Positions 47,183 through 55,271 of a stretch of 64,000 nt of DNA are shown here, piece after piece. Below the pieces are notes generated by a model. It made no database searches. It was not told where the DNA came from and worked only from the letters and a program-made list of their open reading frames with translations. Position numbers and translations under genes: made by a program. The first letter of the stretch is position 1. Every line of letters starts with the position of its first letter. The DNA is from a virus: positions 9,490 to 73,489 of IMG/VR virus record IMGVR_UViG_3300031521_000043; one strand, 5' to 3'.

Positions 47183-47336
47183 TAGATACAGAATTTAAGG
47201 TTATCTCCTAAGCCCTTTTTACAACTTACTTCTGTTGAGCGTTTTTAACGTAGCCACTGCTACGACCTGTCATCGACAGGATTTATCCCTTACGGGTTGT
47301 TTTTTAGTATAATTTTTATTGCTGTGACCGTATCTA
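47183..47336 (-). ncRNA. ACAGCA cassette 1 (multi-hairpin payload)
   Basis: TAGATACGG-TC-ACAGCAA...CTGTATCTA closing stem around several hairpins. Confidence 0.6.
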
Positions 47337-47340
47337 AAAT

Positions 47341-47414
47341 TGGTGGAGCCACCGGGAATCGAACCCGAATCCTATCACTGCCAGCGATATGTCCTACCGT
47401 TGAACGATGACCCC
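47341..47414 (-). tRNA. tRNA-Ala(GGC)
   Basis: G3-U70, loop CT-GGC-AG, CCA. Confidence 0.92.
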
Positions 47415-47417
47415 CAT

Positions 47418-47685
47418 TAATAACGTAGCCGTAGCCGCGGTTCTGTTTTTATCTTTACATTTATCTCAGACTTCTTTCGAAGTAAGTCCCTTACGGGATG
47501 CCTCAACCCGGACTTTTACAACGGGAAACATTACCCTTTGTCCTGTTTGAGTTGCTCCTAATTTGTGGTGTTAACGGGCGTCTTGTTCTCCAGACTCTAC
47601 CCTCCCAATCATCTGTTTTGGAGCCGCGAACTTCCTCTAATAGTGTTTGTTAACAAGTATCAGCGTAAAGTCGCTTGCGTCATTA
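47418..47685 (-). ncRNA. rnpB: RNase P RNA (compact)
   Basis: GAGGAAGTTCGCGGCTCC (CR-I), GGAGCAA, AGATAAATG (CR-IV), ACAGAACCGCGGCTAC (CR-V); P1 TAATGACG/CGTTATTA. Confidence 0.88.
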
Positions 47686-47705
47686 AATCTCAAAGAACTG
47701 TAATA

Positions 47706-47733
47706 ACTATACTTCAAAATTCTCAAATGTCAA
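47706..47733 (-). promoter_or_regulatory. Sigma70-type promoter of the RNase P/tRNA block
   Basis: TTGACA-16 nt-TATAGT. Confidence 0.7.
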
Positions 47734-47739
47734 GCGTGA

Positions 47740-48126
47740 TTACTTTTCACCAAATCTTTGAACGGTTTTAATGCCTACAATACCTATCAAAATTTCTACT
47801 ATTTCTTGTGGTAAAGATGGAATCGTATAAACTCCATGACATATACCAACAATATATGCTAGTAACCAAATAATAAATACTCCACATCCCCACAATAACA
47901 TTAAAATACGAATAGATGAAACTCCGCCTGTATTATCTTGAATCATACTTGAAAATACGTTTACTTTATTATCATTTCCATTTATTACTGTTGTAGAAGA
48001 AATATTAGTTCCAGAATTTACGACGGGCATTTGAACTGTTTGTGTTGGTTGAGTTACAACATTACCATCGGAATTTGGCTGAACAAATCCAGCTTGTGTC
48101 ATCTCATCCTGTGAAATATTTATCAT
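47740..48126 (-). CDS. Two-TM membrane protein, holin-like
   Basis: 'SSIRILMLL' TM ... 'G..G.KTVQRFGEK' C-terminus; TATTTATA 3 nt upstream. Confidence 0.55.
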   Translation of the reverse strand: MINISQDEMTQAGFVQPNSDGNVVTQPTQTVQMPVVNSGTNISSTTVINGNDNKVNVFSSMIQDNTGGVSSIRILMLLWGCGVFIIWLLAYIVGICHGVYTIPSLPQEIVEILIGIVGIKTVQRFGEK

Positions 48127-48182
48127 ATTTATAAATATATAAAAAAACGTATCAATAATTTATCATTGATACGTCTTAAATT

Positions 48183-48259
48183 TGGTGGCGCCTATGAGAT
48201 TCGAACTCATACATTCTACTTTCTCAGAGTAGCGACTCCTACCGTTGGTCTAAAGCGCC
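48183..48259 (-). tRNA. tRNA-Leu(GAG), short variable loop
   Basis: Loop CT-GAG-AA, 5-nt variable region, CCA. Confidence 0.85.
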
Positions 48260-48263
48260 GAAA

Positions 48264-48341
48264 TGGTATGCGTGACAGGACTCGAACCTGTGATAAATCT
48301 CGGTGTAAACGAGACGCCGTTGCCGCTGGAGCCACACGCAC
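48264..48341 (-). tRNA. tRNA-Val(TAC)
   Basis: Loop TT-TAC-AC, CCA. Confidence 0.88.
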
Positions 48342-48350
48342 ATTAAAAAC

Positions 48351-48428
48351 TGGTCGGAATGGTGGGATTCGAACCCACGACCCCCTGCGCCCAAGGCAGG
48401 TGCGCTAGCCAAGCTGCGCTACATTCCG
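48351..48428 (-). tRNA. tRNA-Pro(TGG)
   Basis: C1-G72, loop CT-TGG-GC, CCA. Confidence 0.95.
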
Positions 48429-48437
48429 AAATAAAAT

Positions 48438-48529
48438 TGGCGGAGTAGAAGGGATTTGAACCCTCATTGCTTTTTAGGGCAAACAAGTTTAGCAAACTTG
48501 CGCTACCAGCCGTATTAGCCTCTAACTCC
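48438..48529 (-). tRNA. tRNA-Ser(GCT)
   Basis: Loop TT-GCT-AA, long variable arm, CCA. Confidence 0.85.
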
Positions 48530-48692
48530 ATTATAACATTGATATTTTATAGTGATTCAAGGTCTAACCACTGCCGAATTAGCAATTTTCGGTTTCCCTT
48601 TATAAGGGCAAATTGGCCGCTCTATTTTACCCTCACTCACAGTCGTAAATCGCTGTATAGAGTTAAAGGATTGATACGGAATTACGATAAAT

Positions 48693-48785
48693 TGGCGGTT
48701 GGAGAGGGATTCGAACCCCCGGCACGTTTTTAGGGTGCTATAGTTTTCAAGACTATCGCCATAAGCCGGACTCGGCCACCCAACC
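48693..48785 (-). tRNA. tRNA-Ser(TGA)
   Basis: Loop CT-TGA-AA, long variable arm, CCA. Confidence 0.92.
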
Positions 48786-48796
48786 GTATGTCAATA

Positions 48797-48824
48797 ACTA
48801 TATCATCAATTACAAAATAGTCAA
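48797..48824 (-). promoter_or_regulatory. Sigma70-type promoter of a tRNA block
   Basis: TTGACT-16 nt-TATAGTTATTGACA, near-identical to the element at 60341-60375. Confidence 0.75.
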
Positions 48825-48834
48825 TAATAAAATG

Positions 48835-53452: not shown

Positions 53453-53983
53453 CTAAATTGTTCCCACATACATACCCATGATAATCGCGGCACACGAACC
53501 GACGTTTAATGAACGAACTGTACCACGAGCAGGAATAGTAACTATTCTTTCTGAATTGTCAAGCATGTATTCTGATAATCCGAGTTGTTCTTCGCCGACC
53601 ATAAAGATTGGTGGTAACTTTAAATTACTAAAAGGATTATCATATATTGATACCGTCTTAGATTCAAACTTAGGAATATTATTTTCTACGGAAACTAAAG
53701 AATACTTTCCATTTATAAATTCCATAAAAGATTCTTCGGTTCTAATATAGACAGTCGGAATATAATGATGTGTTCCGACTGTACTTCGACGGTCATACTG
53801 TTTTGAACCACCGACATAACAAAATTCACTAAATCCAAAAAAGTTGGCAGAACGTATACAATTTCCTAAATTAAAATCACCTGTCACGTGCGCCATACCA
53901 AATGCTGCCTTATGAGAATGGTCAGAATAACTTTCCTTGATTTCTTCAACCGACAGTGACTTTAAGTAATCGTGAACATTCAT
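53453..53983 (-). CDS. SpoU/TrmH-family RNA 2'-O-methyltransferase
   Basis: 'NLGNCIRSANFFG', 'VGEEQLGLS', 'IPARGTVRSLNVG' SPOUT motifs. Confidence 0.92.
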   Translation of the reverse strand: MNVHDYLKSLSVEEIKESYSDHSHKAAFGMAHVTGDFNLGNCIRSANFFGFSEFCYVGGSKQYDRRSTVGTHHYIPTVYIRTEESFMEFINGKYSLVSVENNIPKFESKTVSIYDNPFSNLKLPPIFMVGEEQLGLSEYMLDNSERIVTIPARGTVRSLNVGSCAAIIMGMYVGTI

Positions 53984-53996
53984 AATTTTATTTTGT

Positions 53997-54275
53997 TTAT
54001 CTAATTTTTTTCCATGACCCTAATTCATATTTTTCTAAATTTGATGTGATAAGATTATCATTACTGTCGGCCAAATAAAAATGGTCTTCCGGAATATATT
54101 TTCCTTTATATAAATGAAATAATGTTACACGAAATGGCCAACTATTTGGATTGTCATTTGAATTAGAAATGGCCGGACTAAATATAGCTCGCCACACTTT
54201 ACCATAGTTTGACACACATTCAAATTCTTTTCCGTTTTCATAACGACCTTCTAATATCAATTTTAATTTAATCAT
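53997..54275 (-). CDS. Hypothetical protein
   Basis: 'MIKLKLILE' N-terminus; TATTTATT 3 nt upstream. Confidence 0.65.
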   Translation of the reverse strand: MIKLKLILEGRYENGKEFECVSNYGKVWRAIFSPAISNSNDNPNSWPFRVTLFHLYKGKYIPEDHFYLADSNDNLITSNLEKYELGSWKKIR

Positions 54276-54304
54276 ATCAATAAATATTGAAGAATTTGTT
54301 TAAA

Positions 54305-54378
54305 TGGTATTCCGAAGGAGAATCGAACTCCTTTATTCGCATGGAAAGTGCGATGTATTACCATTATACGACCGGAAC
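54305..54378 (-). tRNA. tRNA-Glu(TTC)
   Basis: Loop CT-TTC-CA, CCA. Confidence 0.88.
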
Positions 54379-54385
54379 ATAAAGT

Positions 54386-54461
54386 TGGCAGCCCTACTCG
54401 GAGTCGAACCGAGTTCGCCGGAATGAAAGTCCAGCATCCTTTCCTATTAGACGATAGGGCC
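54386..54461 (-). tRNA. tRNA-Glu(TTC)
   Basis: Loop CT-TTC-AT, CCA. Confidence 0.9.
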
Positions 54462-54563
54462 ATTCATGGATGTTTGATTGACGTCCTCACAGGGAACTTA
54501 TCATTACTATATGATAAAAATCCAACCCTTAATCCATTACTAATTGATATACTTACTTAAAGC

Positions 54564-54692
54564 TAGATACTTTTTTTCGGTGTCCTACTTTAGACGACAA
54601 CTCCAAAATCATTTTAAAAATTATGGCGGAGCTGGATAGGCGTGAACTATCATTACCGGCGTGATATGCTTTTTAACTGCTGTTAGTATCTA
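54564..54692 (-). ncRNA. ACAGCA cassette 3 carrying a circularly permuted tRNA-Asp(ATC)
   Basis: 3' half (54624-54669) precedes 5' half (54578-54604) inside the TAGATACT/AGTATCTA stem. Confidence 0.75.
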
Positions 54693-54695
54693 AAT

Positions 54696-54771
54696 TGGCC
54701 CGGTTCATCCGAGTTGAACGGATTTCTCCACGTCTTCAGCGTAGATATATGACCCCACATCTTCGAACCGG
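54696..54771 (-). tRNA. tRNA-Phe(GAA), divergent
   Basis: Loop CT-GAA-GA, CCA; atypical D arm. Confidence 0.75.
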
Positions 54772-54779
54772 TTTAAAAT

Positions 54780-54852
54780 TGGTCGGTATAAAGGTTATGA
54801 ACCCTTCAAGTGGAATATTACTCACTCTTAATGTATCGATATACATCAACCG
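54780..54852 (-). pseudogene. Degenerate tRNA-like RNA with CCA
   Basis: CGGT/ACCG-ACCA, T-arm-like AAGG-GTTCATAA-CCTT. Confidence 0.4.
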
Positions 54853-54948
54853 TTAAATCGTGGATTTGGAAGGATGCCATTACTCCTTATCTCGGTTATA
54901 ATATTTCTACTATATCCGCACTATGGTTTCGTGCAATCCACTATAAAT

Positions 54949-55022
54949 TGGTTCCCTCTGAAAGAATCGAACTTTCACTAAAAGATTCAAAGTCTCCTGT
55001 ACTACCATTATACTAAAAGGGA
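54949..55022 (-). tRNA. tRNA-Gln(TTG)
   Basis: Loop CT-TTG-AA, CCA. Confidence 0.88.
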
Positions 55023-55056
55023 ATTCTACTACTACTACTATACTATCTCTACAAAA

Positions 55057-55129
55057 TGGTGGACGGTGGGGATTTGAACCCCGTCCGAAACTCTGTCAAA
55101 GTTTCATGCTTCCATCACAATCTCCGACC
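55057..55129 (-). tRNA. tRNA-Val(GAC), divergent
   Basis: Loop TT-GAC-AG, T arm, CCA; mismatched acceptor stem. Confidence 0.7.
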
Positions 55130-55136
55130 ATTAAAT

Positions 55137-55213
55137 TGGCGGGCATACGGGGAATTGAACCCACGTCCTGCTGTTTGACAAACAGCCATTGCTAACCATT
55201 ACAATATACGCCC
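55137..55213 (-). tRNA. tRNA-Asp(GTC)
   Basis: Loop TT-GTC-AA, G73, CCA. Confidence 0.88.
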
Positions 55214-55216
55214 AAC

Positions 55217-55271
55217 GAGATACTTATTTTTCATTTAATAGATGAGTTTTTTTATTTGCTGTTCGTATCTC
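55217..55271 (-). ncRNA. ACAGCA cassette 4 (anticodon arm ATT)
   Basis: GAGATAC-GA-ACAGCAA...TCAT-CTATTAA-ATGA...GTATCTC. Confidence 0.7.

Follow-up and report, generated by a model that had tools for sequence, protein, structure and literature searches.

Handle-bearing RNA cassettes in a phage tRNA island: candidate Y-RNA-like partners of a predicted Ro60-like protein

Introduction

What do four short, stem-closed elements dispersed among the tRNA genes of a phage encode, and why do some of them present loops shaped like anticodon loops? The question is raised by a 64,000-nt stretch of DNA (the window) lying within a 73,489-base IMG/VR virus record (IMGVR_UViG_3300031521_000043) that is estimated to be 21% complete. 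The window encodes a portal protein, a large terminase and tail genes as well as 38 tRNA genes identified by ARAGORN, all of them minus-strand genes within 45.9-60.3 kb, and the four elements, here called cassettes, lie within this tRNA island. A first-pass annotation made from the sequence alone had described them as a modular RNA system in which a conserved handle, recognised by a protein or a ribozyme, carries anticodon arms with adenosine at position 34 (A34), acting either as donors for anticodon-arm exchange and repair or as decoys for host enzymes. The modular build, with exchangeable inserts on a handle that is probably recognised by a protein, is supported by the analysis presented here, and for this window a concrete and testable reading replaces anticodon-arm exchange: the cassettes are probably Y-RNA-like partner RNAs of a Ro60-like protein, in which the handle would bind the protein and the insert would display parts of a tRNA. 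Ro60 and its Y RNAs form a classic but poorly understood RNA-surveillance particle of animals, some bacteria and a few phages.

Four closed cassettes in the tRNA island

The four cassettes are located on the minus strand at 47182-47336, 51089-51151, 54563-54692 and 55216-55271 (cassettes 1 to 4), where the first-pass annotation had placed them, and share a layout in which a 7-bp stem N-AGATAC/GTATCT-N' encloses the word ACAGCA(A/G) and a variable insert and is followed by an unpaired G. The window has four matches to AGATACN{0,6}ACAGCA, where 100 dinucleotide-preserving shuffles average 0.06 and none reaches four; across the whole record this pattern has no forward and four reverse matches, with none in either direction in a backwards-read control. 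The outermost stem pair reads T-A, A-T, T-A and G-C in cassettes 1 to 4, as had been noted in support of a helix, and the closing stem is part of the minimum-energy fold of all four (RNAfold; z-scores of -2.4 to -4.0).

Cassette 1 is closed by nine pairs, one of them G-U, between 47336-47328 and 47191-47183, with ACAGCAA at 47325-47319, a 127-nt insert and the trailing G at 47182. Cassette 2 pairs 51151-51143 with 51098-51090 (ACAGCAA at 51142-51136, trailing G at 51089), cassette 3 pairs 54692-54686 with 54570-54564 (ACAGCAG at 54683-54677, trailing G at 54563), and cassette 4 pairs 55271-55265 with 55223-55217 (ACAGCAA at 55262-55256, trailing G at 55216). The distance from the common stem to ACAGCA is 4 nt in cassette 1 and 2 nt in each of the others, and becomes 0-2 nt when the extra pairs of cassettes 1 and 2 are counted. 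Each cassette lies 2-4 nt from an ARAGORN-called tRNA gene on at least one side, confirming the proximity reported earlier: cassette 1 begins 4 nt after tRNA-Ala(ggc) and ends 24 nt before tRNA-Ala(cgc), cassette 2 is 4 nt before tRNA-Lys, cassette 3 is 3 nt after tRNA-Phe and cassette 4 is 2 nt before tRNA-Asp.

No known RNA family accounts for these elements. Rfam 15 gives no family match for the cassettes at gathering scores, nor at E <= 5 over window positions 45500-61000, and neither ARAGORN nor the Rfam tRNA model reports anything inside any of the four. The 8.7-kb cassette region has no megablast match among 50,697 phage records. Contigs from four public DNA runs, which may share a sampling campaign with the window, cover all four cassette regions at least in part (cassette 3 only to 54640) and list no differences there; with zero variants at the cassettes, no population-level covariation is therefore usable. 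None of the 24 runs listed as holding this sequence is an RNA run.

A wider family with a constant word and a covarying stem

A scan of IMG/VR for the handle word returned at least 117 stretches, mostly chance matches, and the same closed architecture was recognised, among the matches listed, in L007, L054, L070, L090 (the same as L116) and L121. L054, a small fragment, comes from a related phage whose tRNAs are in the same order as those of the window. In L007 and L121 the units are arranged in tandem, and their stems differ while ACAGCAA and the closing G are constant; what is conserved is therefore the single-stranded word together with the geometry, and the stem sequence can vary. ARAGORN calls no tRNA in L007, L070, L090 or L121.

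From 84 distinct units the consensus is WAGRYRC ... ACAGCAA ... GYRYCUW-G, 72 units having A and 12 having G directly after ACAGCA, with an A/U-rich stretch beyond it. The NAGATAC of the window fits WAGRYRC, its AGATAC being the variant of AGRYRC used by this phage. When 39 short units are aligned, each of the seven stem pairs changes on both sides, the outer pair being A-U in 17, U-A in 15 and G-C in 3, so that the covariation first noted for a single pair extends along the whole common stem; an eighth and a ninth pair are unsupported in this alignment. Pairing amounts to 88.5% in the 39 units and to 28-45% after the partner columns are slid. The four cassettes of the window appear, from these sequence comparisons, to be the local form of a widespread phage small-RNA family.

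Four closed ACAGCAA cassettes, one of them with a TTCGAAT T-loop-like hairpin, were also observed on one strand within 3.4 kb of a contig from a giant-virus bin (L081, 9486-12852, plus strand), and L007/L126 and L070 likewise come from giant-virus bins. Either these bins contain phage DNA or the family extends to eukaryotic giant viruses.

Coupling to DUF2828 genes

The gene directly downstream of the L090 cassette encodes a protein with the Pfam domains DUF7788 (E 1.5e-44) and DUF2828 (E 1.1e-32), and the L007 array also adjoins a DUF2828 gene. Loci consisting of DUF2828 genes with 3-kb flanks were scanned under a strict rule that asked for a stem of 7 or more pairs followed within 0-4 nt by ACAGCA(A/G), a span of up to 200 nt and a G at the end. 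In a set of 14 loci (95,622 bases), from which L128 and L129 (both the same as L127), L132 (like L131), and L138 and L141 (both like L136) had been dropped, 32 cassettes were found on the gene strand and one on the opposite strand, compared with one and none when the sequences were read backwards, and 12 of the loci held at least one. In a further 78 loci (542,747 bases) the gene strand held 86 cassettes and the opposite strand 4, the backwards reading gave 8, and at least one cassette was present in 42 loci. The 107 unrelated loci that contain the handle word yielded 61 strict-rule matches in 919,836 bases over both strands, a count that overstates the background because these loci were chosen for holding the word and include at least one probable true array (L081).

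By tblastn, a DUF2828 protein is encoded in 701 of the 50,697 phage records, and four cultured phages scanned under the same strict rule carry gene and units together. In Felix O1 four units are interspersed with the tRNAs that directly follow the DUF2828 gene. Three units immediately precede the gene in Listeria phage LP-083-2, and in Campylobacter phage NCTC12673 two lie in the interval from tRNA-Tyr to the gene. In Mycobacterium phage DirkDirk a single unit comes after a gene annotated as 'Ro-like RNA binding protein'.

Relatives of the window phage connect its cassettes to this arrangement. A complete 365-kb relative (G005), whose terminase is 72% identical, encodes a DUF2828 protein with two cassettes directly upstream of the gene and has four more at 267-287 kb, 130-150 kb from the gene, two of which are clear orthologues of cassettes 2 and 4. 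A more distant complete relative of 297 kb (G007) has no DUF2828 gene and two pattern matches, neither with a closing strand. Among fragments of close relatives, all incomplete, the pattern was absent from all five records of one set and present in two of five in another.

The Listeria phage locus (L144) shows two further features, a ROOL RNA match of 87.4 bits at 956-1507, below the gathering score of 99.1, which precedes the DUF2828 gene and cassettes by about 1 kb, and a gene for an RtcB-like ligase 1.3 kb downstream.

Predicted Ro60-like fold of the DUF2828 protein

Modelled with AlphaFold from a 9-row alignment, the DUF2828 protein reached a mean predicted local distance difference test score (pLDDT) of 75.3 and a predicted template modelling score (pTM) of 0.67. 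In a fold search with this model, all 13 matches at E <= 0.001 are Ro60/TROVE chains (9kop, 9l5y, 2nvo, 1yvp, 1yvr, 2i91, 9nep, 9nfa, 9nf8 and 9nen). The best structural match is the Ro60 of Thermus phage phiLo (9kop and 9l5y; E 9e-9 and 3e-8), with template modelling scores (TM-scores) of 0.54-0.60 and 16-17% identity. The DUF2828 protein is accordingly predicted to combine a HEAT-repeat ring with a vWA domain in the manner of Ro60.

Inserts of the four cassettes

The inserts differ from copy to copy, and those described earlier for cassettes 1, 2 and 4 were recovered. The insert of cassette 1 folds into about four further hairpins (RNAfold); likely orthologues occur in L054, L307 (G005) and L311 (G006), with covarying hairpins and a shared 3' module. 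Cassette 2 carries TCCGC-CTAATAC-GCAGA, an anticodon-arm-like hairpin whose 5-bp stem (51125-51121 with 51113-51109) includes one C.A mismatch and whose 7-nt loop, CTAATAC, spans 51120-51114. In cassette 4, TCAT (55245-55242) and ATGA (55234-55231) flank the loop CTATTAA (55241-55235), forming a weak 4-bp A/U stem that is absent from the minimum-energy fold computed with RNAfold.

Cassette 3 is the only one of the four to hold a tRNA-like domain of T arm, closed acceptor stem and D arm, and its insert is a complete tRNA-shaped domain (54578-54669, minus strand) in permuted order. It begins with the 3' part of the anticodon stem and the loop, GC + ATATCAC + GCCGG (54669-54656), followed by the T arm (54651-54635), the acceptor 3' strand with GCCA (54634-54624), a 19-nt closing loop after this internal GCCA (54623-54605), the acceptor 5' strand (54604-54598), the D arm (54595-54582) and CCG, the 5' part of the anticodon stem (54580-54578). 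T arm, closed acceptor stem and D arm are present in both the minimum-energy and the centroid folds, and the handle exits the anticodon stem between positions 29 and 30. The permuted tRNA described for this copy is thus borne out, but the stand-alone arm GC-ATATCAC-GC is not: it has only two pairs of its own, and a 5-bp anticodon stem needs CCG/CGG pairing across the handle junction.

Permuted tRNA genes are known from the red alga Cyanidioschyzon merolae, where maturation passes through a circular intermediate and relies on the splicing endonuclease, which acts at a bulge-helix-bulge motif. Cassette 3 resembles these genes in placing the tRNA 3' half before the 5' half, with a linker after the internal CCA. 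Unlike them, it holds at the break in the anticodon stem a conserved handle that carries unrelated inserts in other copies.

Comparison with known Ro60/Y RNA systems

The gene link to a DUF2828/Ro60-like protein and the likeness to YrlA-type Y RNAs had both escaped the first-pass annotation. YrlA combines a 5' motif GNCGAA(N)G with a tRNA-like domain made of T arm, closed acceptor stem and D arm, and in bacteria, as well as in some phages, its gene lies beside that of Ro60 (Chen et al. 2014, PMC4201824). Like YrlA and YrlB, to which Ro60 (Rsr) binds, the cassettes are small RNAs closed by pairing of their 5' and 3' ends with a conserved motif on the 5' side next to the stem, ACAGCA(A/G) standing in all four window copies at the place of GNCGAA(N0-1)G. 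The family genes likewise lie beside the gene for a ring protein of HEAT repeats and a vWA domain (predicted in the case of DUF2828), with several different RNAs per genome, and cassette 3 repeats exactly the YrlA order of T arm, closed acceptor stem and D arm (PMC4201824). Cassettes with tRNA-like inserts beside DUF2828 genes score 41.4, 39.8 and 37.4 bits with the Rfam YrlA model, below its gathering score of 69, and in these alignments the handle stem corresponds to the YrlA basal stem and ACAGCAA falls at YrlA's AUGC.

The differences are equally clear. The YrlA model (RF02553) has no match at E <= 5 in window positions 45500-61000, the partner protein is assigned by Pfam to DUF2828 and DUF7788 rather than to TROVE, many family inserts are short hairpins, some shaped like anticodon arms, and the copies can be numerous, far from the gene and inside tRNA islands. 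The cassettes would resemble Ro60/Y RNA systems in their working, and depart from YrlA in two of its defining features, the motif and the model score.

The Ro60 of phage phiLo is reported to bind two upstream RNAs, Yrl1 and Yrl2, with a CGAA motif (PMC12135203). It shares with the present family the pairing of a phage-encoded Ro60-type ring, predicted for DUF2828, with phage-encoded partner RNAs just upstream of the gene. Its RNAs differ from the family in being selected by a CGAA motif located in a bulge, and the terms DUF2828, ACAGCA, tRNA-like and YrlA do not occur in that paper (PMC12135203). A survey of jumbo phages notes that a few of them have ROT/TROVE proteins accompanied by a tRNA-like partner and, within the text available, describes no handle (PMC7824862). 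No publication describing the handle family was found: the papers retrieved for DUF2828 are unrelated plant and animal work, searches for ACAGCAA with Y RNA or Ro60 retrieved only papers with human Y RNA primers, and a 2026 preprint on tRNA mimics mentions neither Ro60 nor phages nor DUF2828.

Together the data point to a second and much more widespread phage version of Ro60 and Y RNA, distinguished by the DUF2828 protein family, by a handle of stem, ACAGCAA and G, and by many RNAs per genome with exchangeable inserts that look like parts of tRNAs. Such a system would account for conserved but unannotated sequence within phage tRNA islands and would open a view on the use of tRNA-shaped RNAs by Ro-type particles, perhaps where phages contend with host enzymes that modify tRNAs or attack them. 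It could be tested at the bench, since Felix O1 and Listeria, Campylobacter and mycobacterial phages carry it.

Anticodon-like loops and the A34 question

The frequency of anticodon-like loops was assessed in 52 short inserts, 50 from DUF2828 loci together with cassettes 2 and 4 of the window. A 7-nt loop is present in 14 of them, and 8 of these read CU-NNN-A(A/C), against a mean of 0.04 for shuffled inserts, with none of 200 shuffles reaching 8. The anticodon-loop geometry that had been proposed is in this respect real. Most inserts of the family are domains of T arm, acceptor stem and D arm, other hairpins, or loops of 3 to 24 nt.

In other phages the anticodon-like triplets are GUU three times and GAU, UUU, GCU, GGU and UCC once each. 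None of these eight loops has A34, all of them having ordinary triplets with guanosine (G34) or uridine (U34) at this position, whereas all three anticodon-like loops of the window phage have A34 (AAU, AUU and AUC). The sequence CUAAU is kept in likely orthologues of cassette 2: in G006 the stem is replaced (UUGU/ACAA) and the loop is CUAAUGA, and in G005 and G009 the register of the loop has moved by one (UAAUCAA). The cassette 4 orthologue of G005 and G009 has the same stem and the loop AUGCUAA, with G34 (GCU). The anticodon-like loops are so enriched and kept that they appear to be under some selection, and A34 is a peculiarity of this lineage.

A speculative reading of this peculiarity, to which we attach little weight, is that the AAU, AUU and AUC arms are look-alikes that are not themselves substrates. 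Held on a Ro60-like particle, they would capture host enzymes that recognise position 34 or lead them astray (anticodon nucleases, for example, or enzymes that exchange or modify guanine-34), and would thereby shield the phage's tRNAs. The context for this reading is that the phage has its own GAU, GUU and GUC tRNAs alongside the AAU, AUU and AUC arms; ARAGORN finds the G34 tRNAs Ile(gat), Asn(gtt) and Asp(gtc) in the window, as had been stated.

Proposed working and alternative explanations

The interpretation of the cassettes as Y-RNA-like partners draws on a motif with a covarying stem, on its genomic coupling to DUF2828, on the predicted Ro60-like fold and on the occurrence of gene and cassettes in one complete relative, and from these we infer how the cassettes may be expressed, processed, bound and used. 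They would probably be made from the same transcripts as the tRNAs and released by tRNA-processing cuts a few bases away. The handle of stem, ACAGCAA and G would then dock on the Ro60-like protein and hold out the insert as a second module, in the window two anticodon-arm look-alikes, one tRNA-shaped domain and one multi-hairpin domain. The displayed module may engage tRNA-binding enzymes or RNAs as a tether or a decoy during infection, and the data would also accommodate decoys that act on anticodon nucleases or modification enzymes.

Several findings weigh against this interpretation. The DUF2828 profile finds no Ro60 among PDB sequences, its two matches being at chance level (E 0.17 and 0.68), Pfam gives the protein no TROVE match at E <= 0.001, and the link to Ro60 rests on a predicted fold with TM-scores of 0.34-0.60. 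The word ACAGCAA differs from the GNCGAA/CGAA motif of known Ro60-binding Y RNAs (PMC4201824; PMC12135203). No strict-rule cassette lies within 3 kb of the gene in 36 of the 78 and 2 of the 14 DUF2828 loci. The 73,489-base record that holds the window has no DUF2828 match, and a relative that is 74% complete (G006) has two cassettes and no DUF2828 match; the gene's absence from the former is weak counter-evidence because the window's record is only 21% complete and G005 has both gene and cassettes. The stem pairing is also partly a matter of construction because the scan that selected the units required a 7-bp stem, and only the strand and backwards-read controls are independent of this selection.

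The inserts might alternatively work as free-standing decoys, mimicking anticodon arms or tRNAs and soaking up host enzymes, with a handle that only stabilises the RNA and defines its ends and with no Ro60-like partner. The enrichment of anticodon-like loops, the retention of CUAAU in likely orthologues of cassette 2 while the stem changes, the presence of cassettes on a fragment with no match to a DUF2828 gene, and the candidate 2H-phosphoesterase-like and SpoU-like genes in the same island would all suit such decoys. A stabilising stem, however, needs no WAGRYRC, ACAGCAA and trailing G conserved across phages of Proteobacteria, Firmicutes, Actinobacteria and Campylobacter, and the same-strand coupling to DUF2828 genes is left unexplained; we regard this alternative as unlikely, and it overlaps with the Y-RNA-like interpretation in that decoy action could be the output of the particle. 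The coupling is equally unexplained if the cassettes are processing punctuation, in which the stem and 3' G mimic an acceptor stem with its discriminator base, are cut by RNase P and 3' trimming and serve as spacers that help neighbouring tRNAs or mRNAs to mature. The stem, at 7 bp and with one unpaired G after it, is as long as an acceptor stem, each of the four copies has a tRNA end 2-4 nt away, and an RNase P RNA-like gene adjoins cassette 1, but there is no CCA after the G, the arrays of L007, L070, L090 and L121 have no nearby tRNA, and to our knowledge recognition by RNase P needs neither ACAGCAA nor a conserved stem sequence, which makes this explanation distinctly improbable.

Donation of anticodon arms, exchanged into or repairing tRNAs to give A34 or I34 tRNAs that read U-ending codons, was the functional proposal made initially, and it takes account of three window loops with A34 that correspond to the Ile, Asn and Asp tRNAs with G34 encoded by the phage itself and of the complete, permuted tRNA in cassette 3. 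It does not fit the family, in which most inserts are not anticodon arms and A34 is absent from the eight loops of other phages, nor the orthologues: G34 (GCU) is found in that of cassette 4, and the loop register is no longer kept in one of those of cassette 2. The hairpin stems are weak, with a C.A mismatch in cassette 2 and a 4-bp A/U stem in cassette 4, no splicing or ligation signature was seen at the cassettes, and we know of no mechanism that swaps anticodon arms; this proposal is very improbable. Least credible is an element acting at the DNA level, such as a miniature transposable element or a recombination site with terminal inverted repeats of 7-9 bp. Inverted repeats around variable DNA in several dispersed copies have that appearance, but the strand bias (86 on the gene strand vs 4 on the opposite), the tolerance of G-U pairs, the compensatory changes that preserve pairing and the presence of ACAGCAA on one side only speak for RNA, and the internal sequences are unrelated, with no target-site duplication seen in the flanks. 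Other readings that were considered and set aside are a retron msr (with a branching G in AGC), a self-cleaving ribozyme, a CRISPR-repeat mimic, a type III antitoxin repeat and an integron attC site, none of which appears to fit the conserved motif, the varying stems and the gene link.

Additional features of the tRNA island

A relaxed scan of the window allowing one-letter variants of ACAGCA gave scattered matches, mostly in coding DNA, and within the tRNA island only 48669-48519. This stretch (48519-48669, minus strand, ACAGCGA), between tRNA-Ser(tga) and tRNA-Ser(gct), is a possible fifth, atypical cassette by its sequence; its 13-bp stem includes two G-U pairs and does not fit WAGRYRC, and the 3' strand overlaps the start of the next tRNA-Ser. 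A covariance model built from the 39 short units (R1) and run over the window with filters off scored cassette 4 at 49.0 bits and cassette 2 at 44.6 bits, both of which are in its training set, and gave partial matches to cassettes 1 and 3 (16 bits, E about 0.1). The model, which is blind to long inserts, did not find a fifth copy and returned eight weak scattered matches (E 0.37-8.5).

Just upstream of cassette 1, between an open reading frame (ORF) and tRNA-Ala, 268 nt at 47416-47683 (minus strand) match bacterial RNase P RNA class A over the full model span at 45.3 bits (gathering score 100; E 2e-11). The match includes the P4-type stretches GAGGAA..GGCUCCA and ACAGAACC..GGCUAC, the specificity domain being mostly missing, and looks like a phage-encoded minimal RNase P RNA.

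Five ORFs of the island, all on the minus strand, are candidates read from the sequence by eye only: a 2H phosphoesterase with two H-x-S/T motifs (50182-50598), a Rossmann-type SLOG/DprA-like protein (49631-50218), a SpoU-type RNA methyltransferase (53453-53983) and two HNH endonucleases (51322-51753 and 57245-57916). Four minus-strand stretches in which neither ARAGORN nor Rfam calls a tRNA (55350-55495, 50560-50990, 52040-52190 and 51160-51235) end in ..CCAATTT like the phage tRNAs and contain T-arm-like hairpins, and the first of them, 55350-55495, resembles a tRNA whose variable region contains a very large insert.

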